This document shows, in pieces, positions 3,057-31,788 of a stretch of 64,000 nucleotides of DNA (its first letter is position 1; each line of letters opens with the position of its first letter). The position numbers and the translations under genes are program-made. Origin of the DNA: Candidatus Nealsonbacteria bacterium (GTDB taxonomy: Bacteria; Patescibacteriota; Minisyncoccia; Minisyncoccales; JANBVM01); NCBI GenBank assembly GCA_047456315.1, contig CP179889.1:56966-120965 (forward strand), in the 5' to 3' direction. Under the pieces are notes generated by a model, which saw nothing but the letters and a program-made list of their open reading frames with translations, made no database searches and was not told the origin of the DNA.

Positions 3057-3059
3057 TGT

Positions 3060-5456: not shown

Positions 5457-5520
5457 ATAATTTTATGTTAGGCGATTAATCTTTATTTGTAAAATAATAA
5501 TGTATAATCAAAAATAAGAT

Positions 5521-6618
5521 ATGAAAACTGCTCTAATTTACAGTCCGGAATTAAAAAACTATAGTTTTGGCAAAAAACATCCTTTTACAAGTGATAGGTT
5601 TGAGAATTTTTTAGCTTTTTTAAAACAAAAACTGCCTGATTTGAATAATTTCTTTGAATTGATTGTTCCTAAACCAGCAAAAGATAAAGATTTAGAATTG
5701 TTTCACAGTAAAGAATATATTGAAGCAATGAAAAAAGCTTCAAAAGGAATTATTCTACCAAACATTTTTCAATACACAACCACAGATAACCTTGATCCAT
5801 CAACAGGATATCTACCAAAAGGAATTCATGAAGCTGGAAAGATTGTAGTTGGAACATCTTTAAAAGCTGCTGAATTAGTTTTTGAAGGAAAATTCAAAAA
5901 AGCAATTGCCTTAGGTGGAGGACTTCACCATGCTAAAAAAGAAAAAGGAGAGGGTTTCTGTATTTACAATGATGTTGTGATAAGCGCTAAAAAACTGCTT
6001 AAAATGGGAGCTAAAAGAGTTTTAGTTTTAGACACTGATGCTCATGCTGGAAATGGAACAGCTGAAGCTTTTTATCATGAAAATCAGGTCTTATTTATTG
6101 ATATCCATCAAGACCCAAGAACAATTTATCCGGGAACAGGATTTATCAATGAAATTGGAGAAGGAAAAGGAAAGGGTTTTACAGTCAATATTGCTCTTTC
6201 TCAAGGGGCTAGCGACAAATCTTACCAATATGTATTTGAAGAAATTATTTTCCCAATAACTAAAGAGTTTAAACCAGAAATAATTATTAGGAATGGAGGT
6301 TCTGATCCCTATTTTGGAGACGGATTAACAAATTTAGGTCTCACTTTAGATGGTTTCAGAATAATCGGGGAAAAAGTAAGAGAATTGGCTAATGAGGTTT
6401 GTAATAGTAAAGAAGTTGATTTGATTGCCTCAGGATACAATCAGAAAATCTTACCAGGTGCATGGCTGTCACTTGTCAGTGGGCTTTGTGATTTAGATAT
6501 AGAAATAAAAGAAGATAAAAAAGGATTTGTAAAAAAAGATTTTGGGTTGAAGGAAACAAAAAACATGATTGAAGGCCTCAAATTATATTTAAAAAGCTAT
6601 TGGAGATGCTTAAGCTAG
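5521..6618 (+). CDS. histone deacetylase / acetoin-utilisation (AcuC) family deacetylase
   Basis: GGGLHHAKKEKGEGFCIYNDVV and DTDAHAGNGT are characteristic of the class I/II HDAC fold. A TATAAT-like -10 element lies at ~5503. Confidence 0.8.
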   Translation: MKTALIYSPELKNYSFGKKHPFTSDRFENFLAFLKQKLPDLNNFFELIVPKPAKDKDLELFHSKEYIEAMKKASKGIILPNIFQYTTTDNLDPSTGYLPKGIHEAGKIVVGTSLKAAELVFEGKFKKAIALGGGLHHAKKEKGEGFCIYNDVVISAKKLLKMGAKRVLVLDTDAHAGNGTAEAFYHENQVLFIDIHQDPRTIYPGTGFINEIGEGKGKGFTVNIALSQGASDKSYQYVFEEIIFPITKEFKPEIIIRNGGSDPYFGDGLTNLGLTLDGFRIIGEKVRELANEVCNSKEVDLIASGYNQKILPGAWLSLVSGLCDLDIEIKEDKKGFVKKDFGLKETKNMIEGLKLYLKSYWRCLS

Positions 6619-7449
6619 CTATATATTAAAAAACTCTCTTGCGTTTTTTGTCGTTGCTTTTACTATTTTTTCAAAGCTTAACCTTTTGATTTTAGCAATC
6701 TCTTGAGCAATATATTTTACAAAAATAGGTTTATTGCGTTTTGTTTTTGTTTGAGGGGGAACTAAATAAGGGCAATCTGTCTCAATTAAAATTTTATCCA
6801 AAGGAGTTACTTCAATAACTTTTTTAAAATCAATATTTTCAATATTTTTAAAAATTATTCCATTAAAACCAATATAGTATCCAAATTCTAAATGCTTTCT
6901 AATATCTTCCTCTGTTCCAACAAAACTATGAGCAACTGCTTTTTTAGGCCTTAAATCAGGGTTCTCGGATAAAATTCTGAACAAATTATGATTAGCCATA
7001 CGACAGTGAAAAATCACTGGTAAATTCAGTTCTTTTGCTAATTCCAATTGTTTTAGTAATAAGTTTTCTTGCTTCTGTTTAAATAATTCCTTTTTGGTTT
7101 TTGGTCTCCAGTAATAATCCAGACCAATCTCGCCAATTGCTACTACTTTTTCGTTTTGAGCCAGTTCTTTGTACTTTTCATAATCAAATTCTTTTTCAAA
7201 ATAATCATCTCCAAATTCATCACTTCTTATTTTTACTAATCCAGTATCCAGAGCCATTGGGTGAAGTCCAACACTAGCATAAATTCCTTTTTCATAATTT
7301 TGAGCAAGCCTGACAACTTCTTCTGATGTTTTTAAATTTGTTCCAACATTAACAACCCAGACATTATTGTCCAGGCATTTTTTAATAACTTTCTCTCTGT
7401 CTTTATTAAAAGCAGGAAAATTTAAATGAGCATGAGTATCAATTAACAT
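6619..7449 (-). CDS. tatD: TatD-family metal-dependent hydrolase/DNase
   Basis: MLIDTHAHLNF start and later ETDCPYL are typical TatD motifs. The ORF-track N-terminal extension (MPRCCASDKIRI) is probably not translated. Confidence 0.85.
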   Translation of the reverse strand: MLIDTHAHLNFPAFNKDREKVIKKCLDNNVWVVNVGTNLKTSEEVVRLAQNYEKGIYASVGLHPMALDTGLVKIRSDEFGDDYFEKEFDYEKYKELAQNEKVVAIGEIGLDYYWRPKTKKELFKQKQENLLLKQLELAKELNLPVIFHCRMANHNLFRILSENPDLRPKKAVAHSFVGTEEDIRKHLEFGYYIGFNGIIFKNIENIDFKKVIEVTPLDKILIETDCPYLVPPQTKTKRNKPIFVKYIAQEIAKIKRLSFEKIVKATTKNAREFFNI

Positions 7450-7478
7450 GATTCTTATTTTATCCGAAGCACAACATC

Positions 7479-7673
7479 TTGGCAAAGGATTTATCTTATA
7501 ATAATATAACTGATGAGATATGTTTATCTAGTATTATGAATAAAAAAATAAAAAACGAGTTTATTTTCTATATTATTATTGTACTGTTTGTTATTTTAGG
7601 AATTCGATTATTTCCTGGAATTTGGTATGATCTCAAGCTCTATTTGTCTTTTCTTAAACAAATAATTCAATAA
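7479..7673 (+). CDS. small hydrophobic protein (possible single-TM peptide)
   Basis: 64-aa ORF with a strongly hydrophobic core (FIFYIIIVLFVILGI). Supported only by ORF and hydropathy. Confidence 0.25.
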   Translation: MAKDLSYNNITDEICLSSIMNKKIKNEFIFYIIIVLFVILGIRLFPGIWYDLKLYLSFLKQIIQ

Positions 7674-7684
7674 ACGAAAAAGTT

Positions 7685-8404
7685 GTGAAAAGAAGTTATC
7701 TAAAATTTATTCTCATTTCAATTGTTGTTTTTTTAATTGCTGGATTTTATTTTAAAGAAAGATTTTCTGACAGAATTCCTAAAGAGAATTATCAATATCA
7801 AGAAGTTAAGGAAAATGGAACAGGAATAATTAAAAAAGAAACTACTAAAATAGAGGAAAATTCAACAACAACAGAACCCAAGGAAGATTTAACTCCAAGA
7901 CAAGTAGTTGAAAGATTTATTGAGGCAGATACGCTTGGAACAAGACTAGGAGGAGAAATTGCCAAAGAAGCACCTAATATTGAGAATTATCGTTCTTCTA
8001 AATTCATGGATCCTGGATGGGATATAATAATGGTCATTAAAAATTATGAAATCGTTGATGAATATCTATCTAAAGAAGGAAATTCTTATTTTGTAAAGGT
8101 AAAATACTTTTGCAAAGAAGGAATTGCTTCTGGTTTCAGTGGAGCAAAAGATGAAAAAGTGATTATGACAACACCTAGTGATGTTCCTGGAGGAGAAGGA
8201 ATAATTGTAAGTTTTAACTGTGACAGCTTCTTCTCTCCATTAGCTGACCCTTCTATTATAAAGTATGATTTTGGATTCCAAACCGAAACTATAACTTTTG
8301 GATTGATAAAAGAGGAAGGAAGGTGGAAGATAGATTCACCTCTTAGTTGTCCTCGCATCTCAGAAGAAACTCTCAAAAAACATTTAGAGGATTTAAGTAA
8401 ATAA
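7685..8404 (+). CDS. hypothetical membrane-anchored protein
   Basis: 239-aa ORF with a GTG start and an N-terminal TM segment; followed by a GGGGCA/TGCCCC hairpin plus T-run terminator at 8407-8455. Confidence 0.5.
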   Translation: MKRSYLKFILISIVVFLIAGFYFKERFSDRIPKENYQYQEVKENGTGIIKKETTKIEENSTTTEPKEDLTPRQVVERFIEADTLGTRLGGEIAKEAPNIENYRSSKFMDPGWDIIMVIKNYEIVDEYLSKEGNSYFVKVKYFCKEGIASGFSGAKDEKVIMTTPSDVPGGEGIIVSFNCDSFFSPLADPSIIKYDFGFQTETITFGLIKEEGRWKIDSPLSCPRISEETLKKHLEDLSK

Positions 8405-8601
8405 AAAGGGGCAGTAAAAAAAATTGCCCCTGGATTGGAGGTTCTGTTTTTTTTAAAAAAAATCAAAAAACACCTAATGAGTTTAAAGATTATATTCAGA
8501 CAATAGAGGTTTGGAATATTTATAAAAACGAGAAATTTGGGTATATAATTCAATATCCACAAGATTGGACAATTATTAAAACCCAAGAAAATCATGGAAT
8601 A

Positions 8602-9051
8602 GTGCTTTCTAATGTAACATTTCAATCAAATAATTACGAAGAAAAAACAAACCCACAACCACAAACAGTAGAAGGTTTATGGCGAACACAGTTACTAACC
8701 AAAGGAACAACATTAATTTTTAATATCGTTAGAATTCCTCCTGATCCTAATTGGTGTATTGGTTTGTTTGAAGACAATCCACAAGAATGCACTTGGCATT
8801 ATTGGGCTAAAAGAGGAACTGATTGGCCATACGGCAAGATACTCAATCAAGAATTTATCACATTGAATGGAAGAGAGGTGTACAAGAAAGAGATAGAATA
8901 TCAAAATATAACCTCGATAGTAATTAGTTTCTCTGATCTAGAAGAAAAAACATTATTTGAGTTTATAATAGATACTCTTACAAAAGATAAAGAAAGAAAT
9001 TTAGAGCTCTTAGAACAAATAATTTCTAATTCTAAATTTTTAAAATCTTAG
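8602..9051 (+). CDS. hypothetical protein (start uncertain, possibly degraded)
   Basis: ORF with a GTG start. The same frame is open and protein-like back to 8401 with no ATG. A terminator hairpin (AGGAGT/ACTCCT plus T-run) follows at 9070-9100. Confidence 0.35.
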   Translation: MLSNVTFQSNNYEEKTNPQPQTVEGLWRTQLLTKGTTLIFNIVRIPPDPNWCIGLFEDNPQECTWHYWAKRGTDWPYGKILNQEFITLNGREVYKKEIEYQNITSIVISFSDLEEKTLFEFIIDTLTKDKERNLELLEQIISNSKFLKS

Positions 9052-19995: not shown

Positions 19996-20724
19996 TTAAA
20001 TTTGTCCGCTTATTTCTAGAATAAAGGATAAATAATGTTTTGAAAACTCCTCTAACCCTTTTAACTCCTTATCATTTATCTTTAATCGAGAAATTGTTTT
20101 TAGTTCTTTTTCAGTAATAAAGCGTATTATTTTAATTGTCGCTGGGCTCACCAATATATCTAATTTATCTTTTGAAAAGCAATTTTTACAAATTATGCCT
20201 TGTTTTTTGGGGCTGAAATAAATACTTTCAGGTTTAAGCTTTTTTTCACAGGCCAGGCAATTATATAAGTTAGGTTTATAGCCCAAAACAGATAAAAATT
20301 TCCAAAGAAAATAATAATAAATTATTTCTGTGTTCTTGAAATTATTGTCATTTAACTTCTCAAAAACCTCCAGTAATAAACTCCAAATACTTTCATCGGG
20401 CTCCTGTCCCTTAATCAAATCATCTAGAACTTCTCCTATATTATATACAATATCAATCCTTTTTAAATCTTTCCTTAAATTCTTAAATTTTTCAATTACT
20501 ATTGCATCAGTTAATGTCTTGTAGTTTTTCCCTTGAATAAACTCAATTTCTGACAGGTAAAAAATCTCGATTCCTACTCTCAGCTTTGAGGTGGTTTTCC
20601 TTATTGCTCTTGCCAGAATTTCTAATCTTCCAAAGTCCTTTGTGTAAATACTAAATAACTGATCAGCTTCTTTCCTGTTAAGCTTTCTGAAAATAATACC
20701 TTTTGTTCTATGATGAACAAACAT
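19996..20724 (-). CDS. recO: DNA repair protein RecO
   Basis: N-terminal OB-fold region (GIIFRK...DQLFSIYTKDFGRLEILARA) and a C-terminal CxxC...CxxC zinc motif (CLACEKK...ICKNC). Confidence 0.75.
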   Translation of the reverse strand: MFVHHRTKGIIFRKLNRKEADQLFSIYTKDFGRLEILARAIRKTTSKLRVGIEIFYLSEIEFIQGKNYKTLTDAIVIEKFKNLRKDLKRIDIVYNIGEVLDDLIKGQEPDESIWSLLLEVFEKLNDNNFKNTEIIYYYFLWKFLSVLGYKPNLYNCLACEKKLKPESIYFSPKKQGIICKNCFSKDKLDILVSPATIKIIRFITEKELKTISRLKINDKELKGLEEFSKHYLSFILEISGQI

Positions 20725-21159: not shown

Positions 21160-24100
21160 TTAGCTTCCGACCTTTTTAATAAATAACTGCAGTTTCTGGC
21201 CGTTAATAATAACCTGTTTTCCTTTTTTCAATTCTTTAACTAAATCCAGGTCCTTTGCCTTTGTTTCTTTGTTAATCATCTTTTCTTTTCTTAGCAACAG
21301 CTCGCTCATATCATGCTCTGCCTTGAATTGAATTATAATAACATCTTTTGGAGTTAGTTTCCTGCTCTTTCTCATTTCTTGAATGTTTCTAATAACCTCT
21401 CTTGTTATTCCCTGCTCTTGCAGTGATTTAGTGATTTCTGTGTTTAGTTTTATCTGTTCTCCAAAACCAATGTCTAAAACATTGACTTCCTTTTTAATTA
21501 AATCTAAAAGCTCTTTTTCATTTTTTAATTCTTTATCTTTGATTGTTAATTCTTGCAGAGCCTGTCTTACTTTTATTTGAGCTTTTGCTCTTTCAGCTAA
21601 ACCTAGTTTTACTATTTCTCTTGCTTTTTCCATCTTTTTATTCAATTCCTCATCAATAGATTTTTTAGTTGCTTTAGGCCAATCCTCTAAATGAATTGAT
21701 TCTTTTGTTTCTAATCCTGATTTTTTAAAATCCTGATATATATATTCAGTAAAAAAAGGAATAAAGGGAGCTGATAATTTTATTGTTTGAAAGATTACAA
21801 AACTCAGAGTTCCAGCAGCATCTCTTAATTCTTCTTCATTCTCAGGCTGCTGAAATCTTTTCCTTGACCTTCTGATGTACCACAAAGAAAGTTCATTCAT
21901 AACAAACTTTTCAATACTTCTGGCTGCACCGGTTATATCATAACTTTCCAGCAATTTAGTGGTTTTTACAACCAACTCATTAAGTTTAGAAATAATCCAT
22001 TTGTCTAAAATATGCTTGGAGCAGGGATTTTCAAAACTCAAGAACTCATCATCAGCATAAGTTTTTAAAAATATATAAGAATTCCATAAAGGAAGAATGA
22101 ATTTTCTTAAAACATTTTCAGGATCTTTCTCCGAGAATAGCTTAGAATCACCAGGATGACTAGAAGTGTAAAATGACCACCTTAAGGCATCAGTTGAGTA
22201 TTTTTCAATAATATACCAGGGATCAATTATATTTCCTTTTGATTTTGACATTTTTTCACCTTTTTCATCCAAAATATGGCCCAAAGAAACAACGTTTTTA
22301 TATGCTGGCCCTTTTCCAAGCAAAGTAGAAATAGCAAGCAAAGTATAAAACCAGCCCCTAGTCTGGTCTATTGCCTCGCAGATATAATCAGCAGGAAACT
22401 GCTTGTTTTCGTCAATCAGTTTTCTATTCTCAAAAGGATAATGATATTGAGCAAAAGGCATTGCTCCTGAATCAAACCAGCAGTCAATTACTTCTTCAAC
22501 TCTTTCCATTAAAGCTTGGCAGCTTGGACACTGAAACTTTACATTATCAATAAAAGGCCTGTGCAAATCCAACTCTAAGTTTTTATTAAAAGGCAATATC
22601 CTAAACTCTATGTTTTCTAATTTGCCTGTTTTTGTTCTATTTCCTTTTTCCCGCCACTTTAAAATCTTTTCAAGCGACCATCCTTCTAAGGTTTTCTTTA
22701 AAATAGCTAAAGGAAGTCCATGAGAAATAATTAAAATATTCTTTCCTTTGTATTTCTCATCAGTTTCCTTTAAGAAACTGTACATTCTTTTTTTAATATC
22801 TCTTACACTTTCACCTTTTGGAGTTTTTGTTTCTGTTAAACTTCCTTGTTTTTTAAAATAATCCCAAACTAATTTTGGCGCCTTGCCGTTAAAAATACCA
22901 ACATTAAACTCCCTTATTTTTTTGCTGAATTTAACTGGAGCTTTGGTTATTTCAGCTATAATCTCAGCAGTTTGTTTTGTTCTTAATAAGTCAGAAGAGA
23001 AAATAAGGTCCAAGCCCTGTTTTTCCAATTTATCTCCTACTTTTTTTGATTCTTCTTTCCCTTTATCAGTTAAAGGGCATTGAAATTTCTCAGGCCAGCA
23101 CGATGTAACTCCTTTCACTTGTTTTACACTTTCACCATGACGAACTGTAAAATAATTATTATTAGTGAACCTCTGCTTCAACAAATCATCAACACCGCCA
23201 ATTACCACCTGGTTTTTACAATGAGCGCACTGCCAGATAGGAAGAGGGGTTCCCCAATATCTTTCTCTTGAAATTGCCCAGTCTTTAACCTCTTTTAACC
23301 ATCCGCCAAATCTTCCTTTTTTAAGATAAGATGGATACCAATTTATCTTTAAATTATTAGCAATTAAGTCCTTTTTAACTTTTGTCATTTCTATAAACCA
23401 GCTCTTTTTTGCGTAATAAAGAAGCGGTGTCTTGCATCTCCAGCAAAATGGATAATCATGTTCATAAAGTTCTTGCTTGAACAACAACCCTCTTTCTTCT
23501 AAATCTTCAATTATCAATGGGTCAGCTTCTTTGAAATACATTCTTGCCCATTTTTCAACATTTAATCTAAATCTCCCCTCGTCATCAATATTCAATAAAA
23601 TTGGCAGTTTATTCTTTTTACCAGCTTCCATATCATCTATGCCATAAGCAGGAGCGATATGAACAAGGCCTGTTCCTTCATCTAAAGAAACAAAATCTCC
23701 CCCAATAACCTTGTAAGCATTTCTTGAAACTTCATCTTCCGCTGGATACAGAACTTCGTACCTTAAATTAAACAAATCCTTTCCTTTGAATTCCTGGATA
23801 ATTTCACCTTCAAGCCCTAATTCCTTAATTCTTTCTTTTGCTAATATTAAATACTCCTCATTAATTTTGATTTTTGCATAAATAAATTTAGGATTTACTG
23901 CCACAGCTACATTTCCAGGCAATGTCCAGGGAGTAGTTGTCCATACTAAAAAAGAAGTATTCTTAAAATTAGGGCTGATAATCTTAAGCTTGATAAAAAC
24001 TGATGGTTCTTTTATCTTTTTATACCCTTGAGCCACTTCATGAGACGAAAGAGGAGTCCCGCATCTGGGACAATAGGGAACAACCTTAAAGTCCTGAATT

Positions 24101-24597
24101 AAGAGCTTTTTCTCCCAGATTTGTTTTAATATCCACCATAATGACTCAACATATTCAGCATTATAGGTAATGTAAGGATTATTAATATCAACCCAGTAAC
24201 CGATTTTCTCTGTTAAATCTACCCAGTCCTTTGTAAAATTCCAAACAGATGTTTTACATTTTTTATTGAACTTAGAAATACCATATTTTTCAATGTCTTT
24301 TTTTGATTTAAGCCCTAGTTTTTTTTCAATCTGAAGTTCAACAGGAAGACCATGGGTGTCCCAGCCACCTTTTCTTAAAACCCTGAAACCCTTCATTGTC
24401 TTGTATCTGCAGATTATGTCTTTAAAAATTCTGGCTAAAACATGATGAAGTCCTGGAGGCGCATTAGCAGTAGGAGGGCCTTCATAAAACACAAAATCAC
24501 GAGCTTTAGCTCGTTGTTTTATGCTTTTTTCAAAGATTTTATTATCTTTCCAGAATTTTAAAATTTTCTTCTCTGTTTTAGTAAAATTGAAATTCAT
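21160..24597 (-). CDS. ileS: isoleucyl-tRNA synthetase (type 2) with an inserted histidine-phosphatase (PGAM-like) domain
   Basis: 1145 aa. It has a HIGH-region, the RERYWGTPLPIW and DLHRPFID motifs, WFDSGAMPFAQ and KMSKSKGN. About 200 aa between residues ~478-675 carry RHGES...SSDLLRTKQTAEII...ISHG. Confidence 0.93.
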   Translation of the reverse strand: MNFNFTKTEKKILKFWKDNKIFEKSIKQRAKARDFVFYEGPPTANAPPGLHHVLARIFKDIICRYKTMKGFRVLRKGGWDTHGLPVELQIEKKLGLKSKKDIEKYGISKFNKKCKTSVWNFTKDWVDLTEKIGYWVDINNPYITYNAEYVESLWWILKQIWEKKLLIQDFKVVPYCPRCGTPLSSHEVAQGYKKIKEPSVFIKLKIISPNFKNTSFLVWTTTPWTLPGNVAVAVNPKFIYAKIKINEEYLILAKERIKELGLEGEIIQEFKGKDLFNLRYEVLYPAEDEVSRNAYKVIGGDFVSLDEGTGLVHIAPAYGIDDMEAGKKNKLPILLNIDDEGRFRLNVEKWARMYFKEADPLIIEDLEERGLLFKQELYEHDYPFCWRCKTPLLYYAKKSWFIEMTKVKKDLIANNLKINWYPSYLKKGRFGGWLKEVKDWAISRERYWGTPLPIWQCAHCKNQVVIGGVDDLLKQRFTNNNYFTVRHGESVKQVKGVTSCWPEKFQCPLTDKGKEESKKVGDKLEKQGLDLIFSSDLLRTKQTAEIIAEITKAPVKFSKKIREFNVGIFNGKAPKLVWDYFKKQGSLTETKTPKGESVRDIKKRMYSFLKETDEKYKGKNILIISHGLPLAILKKTLEGWSLEKILKWREKGNRTKTGKLENIEFRILPFNKNLELDLHRPFIDNVKFQCPSCQALMERVEEVIDCWFDSGAMPFAQYHYPFENRKLIDENKQFPADYICEAIDQTRGWFYTLLAISTLLGKGPAYKNVVSLGHILDEKGEKMSKSKGNIIDPWYIIEKYSTDALRWSFYTSSHPGDSKLFSEKDPENVLRKFILPLWNSYIFLKTYADDEFLSFENPCSKHILDKWIISKLNELVVKTTKLLESYDITGAARSIEKFVMNELSLWYIRRSRKRFQQPENEEELRDAAGTLSFVIFQTIKLSAPFIPFFTEYIYQDFKKSGLETKESIHLEDWPKATKKSIDEELNKKMEKAREIVKLGLAERAKAQIKVRQALQELTIKDKELKNEKELLDLIKKEVNVLDIGFGEQIKLNTEITKSLQEQGITREVIRNIQEMRKSRKLTPKDVIIIQFKAEHDMSELLLRKEKMINKETKAKDLDLVKELKKGKQVIINGQKLQLFIKKVGS

Positions 24598-24914: not shown

Positions 24915-25508
24915 ATGGATTTGGTTAAAAGTGAAGTTAAGAAAGAATTCCATAGAGGTGCGTGGGAATCTCCCGGTTTACGTGATGATCAAATTAGAAA
25001 CTACTTTGAGGAATTAGCTAAAAAGAAGGAAATAGAAATTTTCTCTGTTTCTATTGATGATAGGAAAACCTTAAAAAATGATAAGGACAAAAGAATAGTT
25101 GAAGTCAAAAAAGGGGCAACCTTGCACCCCAAAGAAAAATTAGAGAGTTATTTGAATTACATAATTAAAACTCGGCAGGGGGTAATGTATACTTTAGAGA
25201 TTAAAGGTGGTTATTTCTGTATCGGTGCAGAAGGACCTGGCAGCGCAAGCTGTAGTTGTTGTCTGGATAGGCTTAACAGAAAGCTTGATTTGAGGAAAGT
25301 AAAAGAAACAAGCGGTGGGTTATCTCTTCCCAGTTTGTCTTTCCCTAAGGATACAATAGTTGCTAAGTTTTATTTTTCTTACCATGAATATGATCCTTAT
25401 CATTCCAAGCAATGGACATCGTCTGTTTATTTTTACGGGAAAAGAAGTGTTAGAAACAAGCTATTCAAGAATGTATATGAATTCTTTAAAGAAAATTTAA
25501 AAATCTAA
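24915..25508 (+). CDS. hypothetical protein with a Cys cluster (CIGAEGPGSASCSCC)
   Basis: 197-aa ORF. Confidence 0.45.
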   Translation: MDLVKSEVKKEFHRGAWESPGLRDDQIRNYFEELAKKKEIEIFSVSIDDRKTLKNDKDKRIVEVKKGATLHPKEKLESYLNYIIKTRQGVMYTLEIKGGYFCIGAEGPGSASCSCCLDRLNRKLDLRKVKETSGGLSLPSLSFPKDTIVAKFYFSYHEYDPYHSKQWTSSVYFYGKRSVRNKLFKNVYEFFKENLKI

Positions 25509-25599
25509 TTTTTTTAATATCGTTGAGCCAAGAACTTTATTCTTGGTTTTTTTATTCAGACATTTGCTAAAATATACTCCAAATCCCCAAGACTTTCCC

Positions 25600-25708
25600 T
25601 AATTTCTGCCCAATCTACGGTTCTAAACGCGTCCAATAGGGGGAGCAGGCTAGTGCTCGGTTCGAGCGACCGAGAGGCATAAAAATCGCCATTAGGGCGG
25701 TTTTTTTT
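25600..25708 (+). ncRNA. GC-rich structured repeat element, copy E (3' module)
   Basis: GGAGCAGGCTAGTGCTCGGTTCGAGCGACCGAGAGGCATAAAAATCGCCATTAGGGCGGTTTTTTTT; near-identical to the 3' part of copy C. Confidence 0.45.
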
Positions 25709-25746
25709 GTTACTTTTTTCTCTCTCAATCGTAATATTAAATAGAA
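25709..25746 (+). promoter_or_regulatory. conserved upstream motif (copy 1) preceding the chagasin-like gene
   Basis: GTTACTTTTTTCTCTCTCAATCGTAATATTAAATAGAA lies ~40 nt upstream of the ATG at 25783; a near-identical copy is at 26431-26468. Confidence 0.5.
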
Positions 25747-25782
25747 AGGTCATTAAGACATATAATTAATTATTAAAAGAAT

Positions 25783-26301
25783 ATGTTAAAGCTAATTACT
25801 ACCGTTTTTATTTCATTGCTTATTATTGTCGGTATAAGCTACGGAGCAAACCATTATATCGTTGCTCCAGCAACAGAAAACACAAAAGACGCTGGCATTC
25901 AAATAATAGAAAAGGAGGTTGGCGAAGATTTTGAAATAGTCTTGGAGGCCAATCCCACTACCGGCTATCAGTGGACAGTGGAGTTTGATGAAGAATTTAT
26001 TGAATTGGTTGACAGAAACTATATTGTCCAGGAGCCAACCTTTTCAAAAGATGCAATGGTTGAATCTGTTATGGCTTCCAGAGATGGAGAAATTCCGACC
26101 GAGGATCTTCCTGATGGAGCAAGAGAGATTATTGACAGCGAGATTGAAGAGGGAACAATAGGGTTAGTCGGAGCAGGCGGCCAGGAATTCTTCAAATTCC
26201 TTGCCCTGAAAAAAGGAGATGTAGAAATAAGGTTTTCTTACGAGAGATCTTGGGAGGAAGAACCTATTAAAATCCTGACCTACAAAGTGATAATCAAGTA
26301 G
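25783..26301 (+). CDS. chagasin-family (MEROPS I42) cysteine-protease inhibitor, secreted
   Basis: Signal/TM N-terminus, the NPTTGYQW signature motif, a GAGG loop; size of 172 aa; followed by an AGCAGGG/CCCTGCT terminator at 26310-26340. Confidence 0.75.
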   Translation: MLKLITTVFISLLIIVGISYGANHYIVAPATENTKDAGIQIIEKEVGEDFEIVLEANPTTGYQWTVEFDEEFIELVDRNYIVQEPTFSKDAMVESVMASRDGEIPTEDLPDGAREIIDSEIEEGTIGLVGAGGQEFFKFLALKKGDVEIRFSYERSWEEEPIKILTYKVIIK

Positions 26302-26362
26302 GATTACAAAAAGCAGGGATAAGAGCCCTGCTTTTTGCTCCAAGATAGTGTAGGATACAGTA

Positions 26363-26465
26363 ATGGAGCAAGAAATTGTTGAGCAATGCAAAAAAGGAAA
26401 TTTGGAAAAGTTTGAAAAACTCTACAACAGTGTTACCTTTTTCTCTTTCAATCGTTATATTAAGT
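26363..26465 (+). pseudogene. possible remnant of an ECF/sigma-70 family sigma factor N-terminus
   Basis: 34-aa ORF beginning MEQEIVEQCKKGNLEKFEKLYNS resembles the start of sigma-70 region 2. It terminates inside the conserved upstream motif of the next gene. Confidence 0.25.
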
Positions 26466-26468
26466 AGA
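26431..26468 (+). promoter_or_regulatory. conserved upstream motif (copy 2) preceding the Cys-rich protein gene
   Basis: GTTACCTTTTTCTCTTTCAATCGTTATATTAAGTAGAG lies ~40 nt upstream of the ATG at 26510. Confidence 0.5.
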
Positions 26469-26509
26469 GGAATCGAAAAATATATAGAAACTTAATTTTT
26501 AAAAATAAT

Positions 26510-27550
26510 ATGTCTAAAATAATCATTGCAATCATTTTTATAATAATTGGAATTGTAGCAGGATTAGGTTATTGGTTTTATCAATCAATGTCCGAAGAGC
26601 TAACTGAAATAGAACAAGCCTGTGTACACTCTGGAGGAACAATCTCCACATCATTGTGTTGTAAAGCAACTGGTGATTTTCCTAACCTGTGCCTTGTTGG
26701 TCCTTGTGGTTGTTCACCAGATAATAGTCATCAGGTAAAGATTTGCGATTGCGGACCTGATAAATGTTTTGATGGAAGTGAGTGCGTATCTTTAGATGAA
26801 GTTTCAGTTCTTCTTGAAAGCATTGAACAAGAAACTGGGATAGATTTTTCAGAAGCACAACCAGTTGATTTTAAATGGGTAGTTAAAGTAACTCCAAAAG
26901 TAGAAGAGGAAGCTGTGTCTGGGAAAGGATTTGAAGCTGAACGTATATCAAGCGAGCAGTACGATAGTGTTGAGTCTTTTCTCATAGATAGAGGTTTTAA
27001 AAAGGACCTTTATAATATAGCTGATGGCACTTTTGTTGGATTGAAAGGATATAAAAAAGACCAGATTATTTGTACTGTTTCTGGAGGGTCTACTCCGCAA
27101 GAACCTGATATCAATGATGTAACAGTGAAATGCGGGAAGTTAGAGATAATTATTGATCTGGAAGAACTCTCTCAGTGTGCAAAAGATGGAGAAACATTCT
27201 CAACAATCGATGATGGATACCCAGTCCGTTGCTGTGAAGGTCTAAAAGAATGGTCACCTATTCCAGATACACGTTTTTCAATCGCAGATGTATGTTATGA
27301 AGTTGGGTTACCATTGGAATCTAACATAGGACTTTGTATAAAGTGTGGGGACGGGGTTTGTGAAAACCATCCGCAATATGATGAAAATCCATGCAATTGT
27401 CCTGAAGATTGCGCAGGAAAGGACAAATCGCATTTTTCCAGTATAGAAGAATTTTGCCAGAGCAATGACTGGAAAATGTCTCTTTCCAAAGCCTGCGAAG
27501 AACAAGAACCTATTAAGGGTTCTCCAATATGTGAATTATGCGCTTTTTAA
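26510..27550 (+). CDS. Cys-rich membrane-anchored secreted protein with an internal duplication
   Basis: 346 aa with an N-terminal TM. There are two Cys-rich modules, each beginning CxxSGG(T/S) (CVHSGGT... and CTVSGGS...), and a CGDGVCENHPQYDENPCNCPEDC block. Confidence 0.6.
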   Translation: MSKIIIAIIFIIIGIVAGLGYWFYQSMSEELTEIEQACVHSGGTISTSLCCKATGDFPNLCLVGPCGCSPDNSHQVKICDCGPDKCFDGSECVSLDEVSVLLESIEQETGIDFSEAQPVDFKWVVKVTPKVEEEAVSGKGFEAERISSEQYDSVESFLIDRGFKKDLYNIADGTFVGLKGYKKDQIICTVSGGSTPQEPDINDVTVKCGKLEIIIDLEELSQCAKDGETFSTIDDGYPVRCCEGLKEWSPIPDTRFSIADVCYEVGLPLESNIGLCIKCGDGVCENHPQYDENPCNCPEDCAGKDKSHFSSIEEFCQSNDWKMSLSKACEEQEPIKGSPICELCAF

Positions 27551-27698: not shown

Positions 27699-29285
27699 CT
27701 ACATTTTTTCAGGAGCTGAAATTCCCATCAAGTCAAAAGTTTCTTTAAGTGTAATTTTAACAGCTGATATCAAAGATATCCTAGCCTGCTGTAGTTTTTT
27801 ATCATCAGTTAAGACCTTGCAGTTTTGATAGAACTGATGAAAAGCAGTTGCCAGATCAAAAGCATACTGAGGCAATCTCTGAACTTGATAATCTTTGCTT
27901 ATTTGCTCAATAATTCCCGGGAATCTAATAAGTTGCTTTATTAATAAGGCCTCGGAAGCGTGATTTAATAAAGAAAAATCAGGCTCTGTTTTTTTTGCTT
28001 TAATTTTTTTTAAAATACTGCAAATTCTTGCATAAGCATACTGAACGTAGTAAACCGGGTTTTTCTGTGATTGTTCCCTTGCTAAATCCATATCAAAATT
28101 CAAGTGGGTGCTAGCTGATCTTTGAAGGAAAAAGAATCTAACAGCATCTTTACCAACCATATCAATCAAATCATCCATTGTTACATAATGACCTGCTCTT
28201 TTGGACATTCTTAATTTTTCCCCTTTTTCAAAAAGGGTAATAAACTGCAGAATTATGATTTCAAGCTTGTTTTTGTAACCAAGCACCTCAACAATTGCTT
28301 TAAGTCCAGCTATATCCCCATAATGATCAGCTCCCCAAACATTAATCACCTTGTCAAACTTCTTGTCTTTAAACTTATACTCATGAAGAGCCATGTCTCC
28401 TGCTAAATAGGTTTTCCATTTATCTGATTTTACTATCACCCTGTCTCTGTCATCGCCGTATTGCTTTGATTTGAACCATAGGGCTCCATCTTTTTCATAC
28501 AGAAAGCACTTTTCCTTTAATTTATCTATTACCTTGTCAACCCGTCCTGACTTATGGAAACTTGTTTCTGAAATCCATTCATCATACTTTATTCCCATAT
28601 TGTCAGTGGTTTTTTTAATCATTTCTTTAATAATAATCTTGGCTGCTTTTTCACCAGCCTTGTAAACATCCTTTTCTTTTATTCTTTTACTCAAATCATC
28701 AATATAGTCTCCCTTGTATTTGGCATCTTTATCTTTTAAAACAGAATGCCCTAAAGTCATAATCTGCATTCCATAATCATTTATGTAATAAGCTTTTTCT
28801 GTTTCATAGCCAGCTTTTTTCAAAACATTTGCCAGCACATCACCAAATGCCCCGCCCCTGGCATTGCCAACTGTTAGAGGTCCTGTTGGATTTGCAGAAA
28901 TAAATTCAACCTGAACTTTTTGATTTCTGCCAATATCCAGCTGACCGAATTTTTCTTTTTTCTTAAGGATTTTTTTAACTCGCTCCTCTAAATATTTACT
29001 TGAAACAAAAAAATTAATGAATCCTGGTTTTAATATCTTAATCCTTCTAAATAAATCTGGTATTTTAATTTTGAAATTTTCAGTTAACAATTCCGCTGTT
29101 TCTATTGGGTTTTTCTTTGTTTTTTTTGCAATTATCATTGCAATATTAGTAGAATAATCACCATGAATTTCTTGTTCAGGACACTCAACTTTAATCTCGC
29201 TAATATCAAAAACAGGAATCTTCTTTTGTTTCTGAAGCTTAGTTATTGATTCTTTTATTAATTTTTTAATATCTTCTTTAATCAT
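27699..29285 (-). CDS. argS: arginyl-tRNA synthetase
   Basis: SANPTGPLTVGNARGGAFGD (the ArgRS HIGH-equivalent region) and a C-terminal DALR anticodon-binding domain. Confidence 0.92.
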   Translation of the reverse strand: MIKEDIKKLIKESITKLQKQKKIPVFDISEIKVECPEQEIHGDYSTNIAMIIAKKTKKNPIETAELLTENFKIKIPDLFRRIKILKPGFINFFVSSKYLEERVKKILKKKEKFGQLDIGRNQKVQVEFISANPTGPLTVGNARGGAFGDVLANVLKKAGYETEKAYYINDYGMQIMTLGHSVLKDKDAKYKGDYIDDLSKRIKEKDVYKAGEKAAKIIIKEMIKKTTDNMGIKYDEWISETSFHKSGRVDKVIDKLKEKCFLYEKDGALWFKSKQYGDDRDRVIVKSDKWKTYLAGDMALHEYKFKDKKFDKVINVWGADHYGDIAGLKAIVEVLGYKNKLEIIILQFITLFEKGEKLRMSKRAGHYVTMDDLIDMVGKDAVRFFFLQRSASTHLNFDMDLAREQSQKNPVYYVQYAYARICSILKKIKAKKTEPDFSLLNHASEALLIKQLIRFPGIIEQISKDYQVQRLPQYAFDLATAFHQFYQNCKVLTDDKKLQQARISLISAVKITLKETFDLMGISAPEKM

Positions 29286-30461
29286 TTATTTTTTTATTCT
29301 ATTGTGCAGTCTCATATGACCCTCTTGAATTCCTTCTGAGACCAAAGCTCTTAGCGCTGCTAGGTTTTGAGCCAGACCAACACCAGCCATCACACAAGCT
29401 AATTCCTGGGCTGATTTCACGTTTAATATCTTTAAAGAAACCCTTGCTACTGGATTAGCTGATACTGTTCCCCCAATTATTCCAACTGCTATTGGAACTG
29501 TCATCTCTCCAATTAAATCTCCGCTACTGCTCTTTGTCCATCTGGTCAAGGGCAAGTATTTCCCTGATTTTGCTGCATAACCATGGGCTCCTGCTTCAAG
29601 AGCTCTCCAATCATTTGAAATGGCTAAAGCAACTGCCCCCATTCCATTTAAAATACCTTTATTATTAGTCACAGCCCTATAGATATCAATTTCAGCTATA
29701 GCTTGAGCTTTAATAATATCTTCAACTACTTGTTTACCTTTAAATCCTTTTGTTGTTAAAGATTCTTTTAAAACTTTTCCTTTAACTTTTACTAATCTTT
29801 TGTCAGCTAAATTAGAAACAATTTTAAGAACTGCTTTTTTGTTGACAATCTTTTCAATCAAAGGAGAAACACCTTCGAGCATTGTGTCTACTGTATTAGC
29901 TCCCATAGCATCTTTAGTATCTACCAGCAAATGAATTCTTAAAATTGCCCCTATATTTTTATTATTTAAAACAGTTATTTCTAAATCTTTTGCACCAGCG
30001 CCCATTCTTATTAAATCAGGTTGTTTGGAATTAGCTAGTTTAATAATCTCTTTTTTATTTTCTAAAATCTTTTCTTTAATTTTTTGAATATTTTCTATTT
30101 CCGTTAAATAAATCTGTCCTATCATCTGATTACCCAAATTCTCAGCTTCAATCCCTCCATTTTCTCTTAAAAGCTTTGCTCCATAGCAGGCTGCAGCAAC
30201 TACAGAAGGCTCTTCAGTTACCATTGGCACCAGATAATCCTTTTTATTTATCAAAAAGTTTACAGCAATACTATAAGGAAGCGAGAAAACACCAATCACA
30301 TTTTCAGCCATCCTGTCTCTTATTTCTGGCTTTAATGTGCCCTTTTCAATGATTTCAATTTCCTTGTCAGTTAAATCAGCAAATTCTTTTACTTTTTTAA
30401 GTTTTTGTTCTTTGTTTAGCTTAAAAAAACCAGGGATTCTGCTGTTTTTTTTCTTATCCAT
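29286..30461 (-). CDS. mvaA: hydroxymethylglutaryl-CoA reductase, class II
   Basis: ENVIGVFSLPYSIAVNFLINKKDYLVPMVTEEPSVVAAACYGAKL matches class II HMGR. The start is assigned to MDKKK (the ORF-track start is 84 nt further upstream). Confidence 0.88.
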   Translation of the reverse strand: MDKKKNSRIPGFFKLNKEQKLKKVKEFADLTDKEIEIIEKGTLKPEIRDRMAENVIGVFSLPYSIAVNFLINKKDYLVPMVTEEPSVVAAACYGAKLLRENGGIEAENLGNQMIGQIYLTEIENIQKIKEKILENKKEIIKLANSKQPDLIRMGAGAKDLEITVLNNKNIGAILRIHLLVDTKDAMGANTVDTMLEGVSPLIEKIVNKKAVLKIVSNLADKRLVKVKGKVLKESLTTKGFKGKQVVEDIIKAQAIAEIDIYRAVTNNKGILNGMGAVALAISNDWRALEAGAHGYAAKSGKYLPLTRWTKSSSGDLIGEMTVPIAVGIIGGTVSANPVARVSLKILNVKSAQELACVMAGVGLAQNLAALRALVSEGIQEGHMRLHNRIKK

Positions 30462-30500
30462 TAATTTAAGCTTATCCGATTTTTCTGCTAAAATCAAAGT

Positions 30501-30941
30501 ATGAAAATAATTACTGAGAACAAAAAAGCATATTTTAATTACCAAGTCCTGGAAAAATTTGAAGCAGGCATTTCTTTAATTGGACAGGAAGTAAAATCAA
30601 TTAAACTGGGAAAAATCAACCTGGCCGGAGCTTATGTCGTTCTAAGAAGGGAAGAAATCTATTTAATTGGAGCTAATGTTCCACCCTATCAGCCAAAAAA
30701 TGCACCTAAAGATTACGACTCTAAAAGGCCAAGAAAACTTCTTCTCAGAAAAAAAGAAATTAAATATTTAATAGGAAAATCAAGGCAAAAAGGTTTGACA
30801 ATGATACCTTTAATAATCTATACTAGGAAAGGTAAAATAAAGCTGGAATTCGGTTTAGCTAAGGGAAAGCGAAAATTTGATAAAAGAGAAGCTATAAAAA
30901 AAAGAGAAGTTCAAAGAGAAATCAAAAGAACATTAGGATAA
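30501..30941 (+). CDS. smpB: SsrA-binding protein SmpB
   Basis: 146 aa with NKKAYFNYQVLEKFEAGISLIGQEVKS, typical of SmpB. Confidence 0.92.
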   Translation: MKIITENKKAYFNYQVLEKFEAGISLIGQEVKSIKLGKINLAGAYVVLRREEIYLIGANVPPYQPKNAPKDYDSKRPRKLLLRKKEIKYLIGKSRQKGLTMIPLIIYTRKGKIKLEFGLAKGKRKFDKREAIKKREVQREIKRTLG

Positions 30942-30945
30942 AAAT

Positions 30946-31285
30946 GGGGACGTCAAGATTCGACAGGAATTTGAATAAAAAATGCAAGTCGAGCTTCGAA
31001 TCTCGTAAATCTTCGAAACAACATTAAGTGCCAATAACTTATTTGCACCCGCATTAGCTACTGCTTAATGCCGTCTGCCTTACTGATTCTCGATAGGTAA
31101 AAGCGGGCGTGATATTATCGGGATAGATAGTTTTTTAGGAACTGGGAAAACTATCAAAAATCAACAGAACAAAAATCAGAAAAATTTTGTCCAGTTTAAA
31201 TTTTCTGAGTTCAACTAACTGGGCTAAACTTGTAGAGTTATTTTAGAATAATTCCTGGACAAGGGGGCAGATCCCTTCGTCTCCA
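30946..31285 (+). ncRNA. ssrA: tmRNA (transfer-messenger RNA, ssrA)
   Basis: 5' GGGGACGUCAAGAUUCGACAGG (compare consensus GGGGCUGAUUCUGGAUUCGACGGG). The 3' end AAGGG-GGCAGAU-CCCUU-CGUCUCC-A gives an acceptor stem GGGGACG/CGUCUCC with a G3-U70 pair and discriminator A. It sits directly downstream of smpB. Candidate tag frame: GCC AAT AAC TTA TTT GCA CCC GCA TTA GCT ACT GCT TAA. Confidence 0.8.
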
Positions 31286-31287
31286 CT

Positions 31288-31788
31288 ATGTTTAAAATGG
31301 TAAAAACAAGTTATGGGAAAATAAAAAACCTTTCTAGCCCAGAGGCGGCTTATACGGCTGGCTTAATTGATGGAGACGGTACAATTGCTTTGAGTCGCTC
31401 TCAAAGCAAGAATCGAAATAAAAAAGAGTATCGCAGATTAGAAGTTAAAATAAGCAATACAGATTTTAATCTACTTAGTTATATTAAAAATATAGTCGGT
31501 GCCGGACAGATATCAAAGAAAAGGCCGCGCAATGAAAGACAGTCAATATCTTACGCATACAGAATCTGTAATCGACAAGCATTCAATCTTTTAACTCAGA
31601 TTTCATCCTGTCTTAAAACCTATAAGCAAAAACGTGCGAGGCTAGTTTTAGAAAATTATATAGAATTAACTCCCCGCAACGGAAAGTATTCCCAGGAAAT
31701 CCTTGCCAGAAAAAAACGATTCGTGAAAGCTTTTTTCGCTATACCATCGACAATGAAAATAAAGCCGAAAATCGCAAAATATTATTAG
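31288..31788 (+). CDS. LAGLIDADG-family homing endonuclease (single-motif, I-CreI-like size)
   Basis: 166 aa with AAYTAGLIDGDGTIAL (the LAGLIDADG motif). It starts 3 nt after the tmRNA 3' end. Confidence 0.75.
   Translation: MFKMVKTSYGKIKNLSSPEAAYTAGLIDGDGTIALSRSQSKNRNKKEYRRLEVKISNTDFNLLSYIKNIVGAGQISKKRPRNERQSISYAYRICNRQAFNLLTQISSCLKTYKQKRARLVLENYIELTPRNGKYSQEILARKKRFVKAFFAIPSTMKIKPKIAKYY

Follow-up and report, generated by a model that had tools for sequence, protein, structure and literature searches.

A histidine phosphatase nested in a patescibacterial isoleucyl-tRNA synthetase, and its free-standing counterpart beside ileS in related genomes

The universal and ancient CP1 (connective peptide 1) domain of the isoleucyl-, valyl- and leucyl-tRNA synthetases (IleRS, ValRS and LeuRS) deacylates mischarged tRNA. 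In IleRS this editing domain is a hydrolase that sits inside a Rossmann-fold connective peptide, which shows that the scaffold tolerates nested catalytic domains; among the aminoacyl-tRNA synthetases (aaRS), which belong to the most thoroughly studied enzymes, extra catalytic domains nested in this way have so far been essentially limited to the editing domain. Here we describe an ileS gene (21160..24597, minus strand, one uninterrupted frame of 1145 aa) in a 64,000-nucleotide stretch from the genome of an ultra-small patescibacterium, Candidatus Nealsonbacteria (GenBank assembly GCA_047456315.1, contig CP179889.1, positions 56,966 to 120,965 of the forward strand; this whole stretch is hereafter the window, and coordinates refer to it). 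Its product is a type-2 IleRS with an embedded histidine phosphatase (HP), which resembles CP1 as a nested hydrolase but is lineage-restricted, sits in another loop and has an unrelated phosphatase fold. The bacterial type-2 enzymes described so far (8C8U/8C8W, 1ILE; PMC10485003) belong to the same family and share its fold (Foldseek TMt 0.75-0.84), and the window IleRS is like the described G/AXHH IleRS2 in its swapped GLHH motif, KMSKS signature, CP1 editing domain and type-2 C-terminus. It differs from all solved or described IleRS in carrying an enzyme domain of ~200 aa in the zinc knuckle after the WGTPLP strand. There is a bacterial precedent for an IleRS with an extra enzyme domain as an annotation class of its own (ileS_w_GNAT, NF040702), where the added domain is a GNAT and not an HP; the window IleRS scores 322 bits against the cut-off of 1999 of that model and has no GNAT domain. 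What is unusual here is the combination of a second hydrolase nested in the catalytic core of a synthetase with the alternation, in related genomes, between a free gene and an embedded domain.

A literature search for IleRS or aaRS together with histidine phosphatase, phosphoglycerate mutase (PGAM), candidate phyla radiation (CPR), fusion and RNA repair returned no description of this architecture, and the word 'phosphatase' is absent from a 2026 preprint that annotates the domain architectures of 96,219 IleRS sequences. An earlier inspection of the window without database searches (hereafter the sequence-only reading) had stated that no IleRS of this kind was described; this holds for the literature searched, but proteins with such an insert abound in public sequence databases, in records that label them merely IleRS or 'class I tRNA ligase family protein'. 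An exact-sequence lookup of the window IleRS itself gave no entry in the assembly collection.

The position of the insert is well defined by alignment to the IleRS of T. thermophilus (1ILE), in which residues 4-476 of the window protein correspond to residues 9-479 of the chain, and residues 676-1006 to 488-819. Approximately 200 aa, comprising a branch-1 HP domain and its linkers (residues 477-675; 22573..23169, minus strand), thus stand where the T. thermophilus enzyme has a linker of ~8 residues. The sequence-only reading had proposed an insert of this size at residues ~478-675, in a segment normally only a few tens of residues long, and both statements agree with our alignments, the segment between WG..P..W and DLHRP measuring only ~30-45 aa in insert-free related IleRS. 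The insertion site lies inside the CxxC...CxxC zinc knuckle, after the WGTPLPIW strand, in the second Rossmann half. The knuckle's first half, CAHC (residues 457-460, with C457 and C460; 23218..23229, minus strand), aligns with CQAC of T. thermophilus, and the second, CPSC (residues 690-693, with C690 and C693; 22519..22530, minus strand), with C-AC. By its position the host loop would be a CP3-type connective peptide; Chen et al. (2024, PMC11685878) name the CP core, the editing domain (ED), CP2 and CP3 of IleRS. The domain is joined back to the synthetase by a C-terminal linker, FRILPFNKNLELDLHRP (22555..22605, minus strand), whose motif LP[YF]N..E.D[LF]HRP is kept by inserted enzymes of two IleRS types and is missing from those without an insert.

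The insert itself is recognized by the Pfam model His_Phos_1 (PF00300) both within the full protein (residues 485-648, E=5.1e-32, 111.5 bits against a cut-off of 21.7) and, as the sequence-only reading had anticipated, with strong significance in the excised span (residues 478-675, 22573-23166; E=2.6e-33, 115.8 bits). The three HP hallmark motifs that had been read from the sequence are all confirmed, and the catalytic positions are nearly invariant in an alignment of 208 HP domain copies pooled over all our searches. The RHG motif (R486, nucleophile H487 and G488, within RHGES at 486-490; 23134..23142, minus strand) has its arginine in 191/191 and its histidine in 190/191 copies; SSDLLRTKQTA (534-544; 22966..22998, minus strand) contains S535, found in 203/203 copies, and the phosphate-binding R539, found in 202/203; and SHG (625-627; 22717..22725, minus strand) provides the second catalytic histidine, H626, present in 197 of 200 copies. 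The presumed general acid/base, E563 (22909..22911, minus strand), is E or D in 200 of 203.

AlphaFold2 predicts the insert alone with a predicted local distance difference test score (pLDDT) of 91.3 and a predicted template modelling score (pTM) of 0.89, and the full protein with a pLDDT of 90.6 and a pTM of 0.85. Because the pLDDT remains high (88-96 in ten-residue blocks) across both junctions, and reaches 92-93 in the C-terminal linker, the model predicts a rigid docking of the HP domain on the synthetase and not an attachment by floppy tethers. The predicted model shows the alpha/beta/alpha HP fold, with a Foldseek probability of 1.00 to PspA, CobC, PhoE, dPGM and TIGAR; the nearest solved folds are PspA, TIGAR, CobC, Rv2419c and PhoE. 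None of the solved structures that Foldseek matches to the full-length model covers the insert region. With PhoE (1H2E), PspA (4IJ5), CobC (6NRU, 6E4B) and Rv2419c (4QIH) the insert shares the fold (Foldseek E 1e-11 to 4e-14, TM ~0.7), the size class and the R-H-R-E-H catalytic set, and it differs from these small branch-1 phosphatases in being much more basic and in being nested in, or operonic with, an aaRS. Compared with its closest relative (locus L001, of equal length and 87% identical), the insert has a ratio of nonsynonymous to synonymous substitution rates (dN/dS; Nei-Gojobori) of 0.140, a substitution pattern that shows it to be under purifying selection. Collectively, the insert is a complete and, to all appearances, active branch-1 histidine phosphatase, and both enzymes of the composite protein keep all their catalytic residues.

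The inserted enzyme (~190 aa) is of the PhoE/CobC/PspA kind and scores below the cut-off of each named phosphatase model. The top-scoring named model is that of the alpha-ribazole phosphatase CobC (TIGR03162), with 83.6-88.1 bits, below its threshold of 162.9. The phosphoserine phosphatase PspA, which has the closest solved fold, reaches 64.8-69.7 bits against 350 (NF045917). Phosphoglycerate mutase (45.3 against 81.7 bits for TIGR01258, 70-74 against 225 for NF038349, dPGM_arch), GpmB (NF002901, 74-80 against 261) and the phosphohistidine phosphatase SixA (TIGR00249, 31.5 against 74.5) likewise remain below their cut-offs. The RNase H/acid phosphatase model (NF005567) also describes a CobC-like phosphatase joined to a nucleic-acid enzyme, with 60-64 bits for the insert against a cut-off of 326; that type is an end-to-end fusion with RNase H with no link to aminoacylation, whereas the window HP lies inside a catalytic fold. 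An intein was considered as well, and Pfam finds no Hint or intein domain in the protein; the junctions of the insert read ...KQR/FTNNNY and ...KNLE/LDLHRP. PADLOC returned no match in favour of a defence system, and the only PHROGs match was to one family of unknown function.

The synthetase parts on either side appear to form the cell's working type-2 IleRS in its GLHH variant, its aminoacylation activity being inferred from motifs, from the syntenic housekeeping position of the gene and from dN/dS. The N-terminal part (residues 1-476; 23170..24597, minus strand) aligns to 1ILE over the first Rossmann half, the CP1 editing domain and the first half of the zinc knuckle, and the C-terminal part (residues 676-1145 and stop; 21160..22572, minus strand) comprises the second half of the knuckle, the second Rossmann half, KMSKS, and the anticodon-binding and type-2 C-terminal domains. 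The NCBIfam model for isoleucine--tRNA ligase (TIGR00392; 924.2 bits, cut-off 621.4) matches in two stretches, one on either side of the insert, as does Pfam tRNA-synt_1 (E=1.7e-112), which is followed by Anticodon_1 and DUF5915. The best solved-structure matches of the full-length model are the IleRS2 8C8U (TMt 0.80) and 1ILE (TMt 0.84), and structures of the isolated T. thermophilus editing domain match residues 191-383 (1WK8, E=2e-45). The protein has both the CP1 editing domain and a type-2 C-terminal region that lacks the zinc-binding domain found in IleRS1. GLHH (residues 49-52; 24442..24453, minus strand) aligns with HVGH of T. thermophilus and is a G/AXHH variant of the class I HIGH motif, which is catalytically competent in IleRS2 and confers mupirocin hyper-resistance (Brkic et al., 2023, PMC10485003). 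A swapped HIGH of the GLHH type is common to most IleRS found at the ileS locus in related genomes. The KMSKS signature is intact (residues 782-786; 22240..22254, minus strand), and WTTTPWT (219-225), WFDSG and DQTRGW are kept together with CAHC/CPSC, in line with the earlier statement that the flanking IleRS motifs are undamaged. Relative to L001 the dN/dS is 0.075 for the N-terminal and 0.091 for the C-terminal part, and GC content is even along ileS, with no composition anomaly. The protein scores below the cut-offs of the models of MupA (NF000257, 815 against 1900 bits) and MupB (NF000258, 811 against 1900).

In order to place the insert in its wider context, we scanned one genome per GTDB species with an alignment of six close insert sequences, which yielded 233 stretches encoding a relative; the counts of loci given here refer to the best 80 of these 233. 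Over the 80 loci we found a syntenic block with the order IF3 gene (-), x (-), argS, ileS, a small open reading frame (ORF), recO, a gene for a DUF7619 protein and a class II aaRS gene, and the gene order in the window is identical. The phosphatase occurs at this block in two states. An uninterrupted IleRS (928-1006 aa), directly preceded by a free hp gene (187-211 aa), occurs in 19 loci; 16 of these 19 have the exact order argS-hp-ileS, and the genes overlap or are separated by gaps of a few nucleotides. In 60 loci the HP domain is embedded and there is no free hp between argS and ileS, argS lying immediately upstream in 29 of them and nearby in 11 more. The free gene and the embedded domain thus exclude each other between argS and ileS; this alternation, the most informative feature of the locus, does not figure in the sequence-only reading. 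The mutual exclusion is limited to that interval because locus L080 has, besides its embedded HP, a second His-phosphatase gene fragment (L080:1-273, cut by the locus edge) ~4 kb upstream of the insert-bearing ileS, beyond argS. Of all 20 free hp copies retrieved, 19 adjoin ileS, the single exception being L044. No second His_Phos gene was found within the 64-kb window. Gene order and domain structure together show the phosphatase to be a long-standing genomic partner of ileS in Patescibacteria of the Parcubacteria group.

The embedded architecture is widespread: no fewer than 60 Patescibacteria genomes at the species level share it, as do dozens of clusters at 50% identity. When the insert was searched exhaustively with phmmer against 1.84 billion cluster representatives, 26 matches reached E<=1e-30; among the top 150 matches, ~35 are full-length proteins of 1090-1420 aa with the HP domain near residue 480-700, and the rest include many fragments of long proteins as well as free-standing proteins of ~190 aa, the best of them 44% identical to the insert. 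Long patescibacterial IleRS, which the sequence-only reading had suggested looking for, exist in number, and the assignment to CPR/Patescibacteria implied in that reading is correct as well. A query spanning the junction retrieved dozens of partial proteins with both PF00133 and PF00300 from Nealson-, Uhr-, Niyogi-, Magasanik- and Sungbacteria, Paceibacterota and others within the Patescibacteria/Parcubacteria group. The same architecture recurs in at least 60 independent assemblies, which excludes chance and assembly error; with this recurrence, the profile scores, the catalytic conservation, the purifying selection and the structure models, the earlier view that we are dealing with a domain insertion and not a pseudogene is well founded. 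IleRS-HP genes also occur in metagenome-assembled genomes labelled Pacearchaeota archaeon, Nanoarchaeota archaeon, Humimicrobiaceae and Binatia (L059 = DAOSAR010000002.1, P0007, L027 and L063), of which L059 and L063 lack the usual synteny; these could be mis-binned Patescibacteria contigs or cases of real lateral transfer.

The zinc knuckle is not the only place that received an HP domain. A second insertion site lies near window residue ~731, in the loop from DSGAMP to PADYI..DQTRGW (P0150, P0248, P0251, P0260, L034, L035), and a third at ~850-864, where the catalytic body is followed by the anticodon-binding domain (P0152, P0248, P0251). Tandem copies also occur, up to four of them in P0146. 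In all, IleRS of 1087-1419 aa with two to four HP domains were found in P0146, P0150, P0152, P0248, P0251, P0260, P0263, L034 (ORF 2166-6248) and L035 (ORF 4567-8649), and the catalytic set is intact in every copy whose catalytic positions are present. In a further relative, P0157 (1030 aa), the whole CP1 editing domain (window residues ~197-385) is missing and the HP nucleophile His is replaced by Ala; this protein may be a degenerate paralogue.

Three types of IleRS occupy the ileS locus, with GxHH, with a eukaryote-like HYGH, and with MGxHH and GMHKS replacing KMSKS. In a neighbour-joining tree of IleRS, the free and the inserted states both occur inside the GxHH clade and inside the HYGH clade, and free and inserted phosphatases interleave on a neighbour-joining tree of the HP domain, some free copies being 69-73% identical to inserted copies whose IleRS is of another type. 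The boundaries of the insert are the same in both inserted IleRS types. This leaves one of two histories: either repeated insertion at the same loop, or recombination between ileS alleles of a cassette made of the phosphatase and its knuckle flanks. It seems that the HP domain, perhaps as such a recombining cassette, changes places between a gene of its own and several sites within ileS. At the insert in the window we found no flanking DNA repeats, which were sought as a sign of recent mobile insertion. The third IleRS type (L040:5142-7982, also in L046, L049 and L061) always has a free hp upstream; its motifs are PITANNPMG[IV]HH, KGMHKS for KMSKS and EMRAQISTWYY for EAIDQTRGWFY, and with 789 bits it is above the cut-off of TIGR00392.

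We propose that the phosphatase works together with the synthetase, as a phosphomonoesterase coupled to aminoacylation. Taken as a whole, the explanation that the locus encodes a working IleRS and a complete HP functionally tied to it has, in our estimate, an even chance of being right; for the narrower claim that the phosphatase is coupled to the synthetase or to aminoacylation, and is no unrelated passenger, the genomic patterns tip the balance slightly in favour. Two observations favour a function connected with the synthetase and its RNA: the linkage and the insertions persist and recur, and the domain is unusually basic. The argS-hp-ileS linkage persists across the three IleRS types at the locus, and under pure neutrality one would hardly expect an essential enzyme to take up in-frame insertions in its core again and again. 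The charge per residue is +0.106 for free HP, +0.067 for inserted HP and +0.030 for the IleRS body, compared with a median of +0.031 and a 90th percentile of 0.086 for the ORFs of the window; this marked basic charge fits RNA binding, and the untethered free form is the more basic of the two. By the mechanism of the family, H487 would attack a phosphomonoester bound through Arg486, Arg539 and His626 to give a phospho-histidine intermediate, and Glu563 would serve as acid/base. Our preferred guess as to the substrate, which is tentative and in this specific form rather unlikely, is a blocking terminal 2'/3'-phosphate on the acceptor end of a tRNA held by the synthetase. Once dephosphorylated, the tRNA could then be charged, which would make this a 'heal-and-charge' synthetase coupling tRNA repair to aminoacylation, and the free hp product would do the same job as a strongly basic partner protein.

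Several points weigh against this proposal. The insert scores above the threshold of no named phosphatase equivalog model in NCBIfam, and the nearest structures found by Foldseek are all small-molecule phosphatases; we know of no member of the histidine phosphatase superfamily that acts on RNA ends. CPR proteomes are generally basic. The entire argS...recO block is syntenic, and the adjacency of argS, hp and ileS may be historical. Both the IleRS and the HP trees were built by neighbour-joining and carry no support values. Finally, patescibacterial genes fuse promiscuously, and fusion alone is weak evidence of shared function. The HP subfamily has other partners, namely TsaC/Sua5 (four clusters), a QueC-like PP-loop protein, a GNAT and, in one C-terminal fusion, ArgRS. 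The fusion with TsaC is real and recurrent, and we nevertheless give it little functional weight because TsaC fuses to many unrelated partners. In Patescibacteria the t6A enzyme TsaC/Sua5 is found fused most commonly to an Ogt-type DNA methyltransferase, and also to TruB and to 2H cyclic phosphodiesterase/RNA-ligase-like domains, with methylpurine glycosylase, GNAT, NUDIX and HP among its further partners (P0204, P0268-P0386). The ArgRS-HP fusion is known from a single representative of 689 aa (P0139); a junction search found no other, in a database that listed no match longer than ~640 aa although relatives of 1100-1400 aa are present among the cluster representatives, and we do not rely on this fusion, since argS and hp overlap or abut and read-through or a sequencing artefact is possible.

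These considerations lead to the most serious competitor, which we regard as possible though rather doubtful: the phosphatase could be a neutral hitch-hiker, a phosphomonoesterase of general metabolism or scavenging that plays no part in aminoacylation. Rearrangements near the upstream hp gene would have dropped copies into tolerant surface loops of IleRS, after which the redundant free copy was lost, as in a constructive-neutral ratchet. Such a history would suit the fold and the small-molecule phosphatases that are its nearest relatives, the ease with which patescibacterial genomes make fusions, the tolerance of several different IleRS loops for the insert and the synteny of the block whatever the state of HP. 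It also has a precedent in Rv2228c, a His phosphatase fused to a seemingly unrelated nucleic-acid enzyme; we take the RNase H/CobC-type bifunctional protein of NF005567 to be of this M. tuberculosis type. Yet in-frame insertion at the same site of the catalytic core in two deeply different IleRS types is hard to obtain by drift, all the more so given that two other sites are occupied as well and that as many as four intact copies stand in tandem, and a scavenging enzyme would not be expected to adjoin ileS in 19 of 20 retrieved free copies, to keep a docking linker with a predicted rigid packing, or to be so unusually positively charged. Simple artefact or decay, in the form of an assembly chimera, a frameshifted pseudogene, an intein-like insert or a dead spacer, has next to no chance of being the explanation. 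Essentially nothing speaks for it apart from the lone odd relative P0157 with its missing nucleophile, and against it stand the continuous ORF, the recurrence of the architecture across assemblies, the dN/dS of 0.14 and the near-invariant catalytic residues, along with the uniform GC and the lack of intein domain and flanking repeats.

The sequence-only reading had suggested, as possible roles, regulation of the synthetase, action on a nucleotide or Ap4A-type by-product, and action on phosphorylated tRNA ends. Two other functional explanations were considered here. The HP could clear products, hydrolysing pyrophosphate (PPi), AMP or a related nucleotide where it is made and so pulling activation forward. 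All fusion and operon partners seen (IleRS, ArgRS, TsaC/Sua5, the QueC-like PP-loop protein and a metK-like neighbour in L044) release PPi and AMP from ATP or otherwise cleave ATP, and a ribose-5'-phosphate is the substrate of CobC-like relatives. In branch 2 of the superfamily, AppA and the phosphatase domain of PPIP5K hydrolyse phosphoanhydrides. On the other hand, we know of no branch-1 histidine phosphatase that is a pyrophosphatase, the list of partners may only reflect fusions among neighbouring translation genes and includes ArgRS on the strength of a single case, and hydrolysis of AMP would be wasteful for a nucleotide scavenger; we therefore consider product clearing improbable. A motif scan of the window and the 80 loci, a small sample, detected no canonical pyrophosphatase. 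Less probable still, with only a slim chance in our view, is a protein phosphatase or regulatory module that dephosphorylates IleRS (for example after a HipA-like kinase) or another protein, or that senses a phosphometabolite. The superfamily offers precedents in the protein phosphatases SixA, PGAM5 and Sts, Hip-type toxins phosphorylate class I synthetases near KMSKS, and the predicted rigid docking would fit an action in cis. The score of 31.5 bits for the SixA model argues against it, however, as do the predicted PhoE/CobC-size cap in place of an open SixA-like site, the conserved neighbourhood, in which no kinase was seen, and the lack of a PADLOC defence match.

If the heal-and-charge proposal is true, the histidine phosphatase superfamily would gain its first member directed at RNA, and the aaRS a new class of accessory activity. 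Whatever the substrate, the gene neighbourhood and the domain insertion are strong genomic evidence of a functional partnership, and the pattern points to a step connected with the charging of tRNA, or at any rate with IleRS, in organisms whose minimal genomes contain little that they could do without. Its occurrence spans a large part of the Patescibacteria, and the hypothesis can be tested with recombinant protein. The locus also offers a clean case from nature of an entire enzyme passing out of one gene into internal loops of the product of the next, which would be interesting for the study of protein evolution and for domain-insertion engineering.

The remaining members of the block in the window are readily identified. 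The argS gene (27699..29285, minus strand) lies upstream of ileS and encodes an ArgRS of 528 aa with the Pfam domains Arg_tRNA_synt_N, tRNA-synt_1d and DALR_1, and recO (19996..20724, minus strand; Pfam RecO_N and RecO_C) lies downstream, as it does in 53 of 79 loci. Three ORFs on the plus strand (24915-27550) part ileS from argS, at a place where relatives have a free hp gene or nothing; they encode a 197-aa protein without Pfam match, a peptidase inhibitor of the chagasin family (I42) and a Cys-rich protein of 346 aa with an N-terminal hydrophobic segment, also without Pfam match. A transfer-messenger RNA (tmRNA) gene (30946-31288, plus strand) was detected with Rfam (RF00023, 139 bits) and missed by ARAGORN, which called no tRNA or tmRNA in the window. 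Directly upstream of argS lies a gene for HMG-CoA reductase (29286-30545, minus strand), likewise in L001 and L005, and six loci have upstream of argS a gene of the amino-acid-kinase family (225 aa, e.g. L046:3754-4428), whose product is possibly an isopentenyl phosphate kinase. The HMG-CoA reductase and amino-acid-kinase-family genes near argS are mevalonate-pathway genes in a Patescibacterium.

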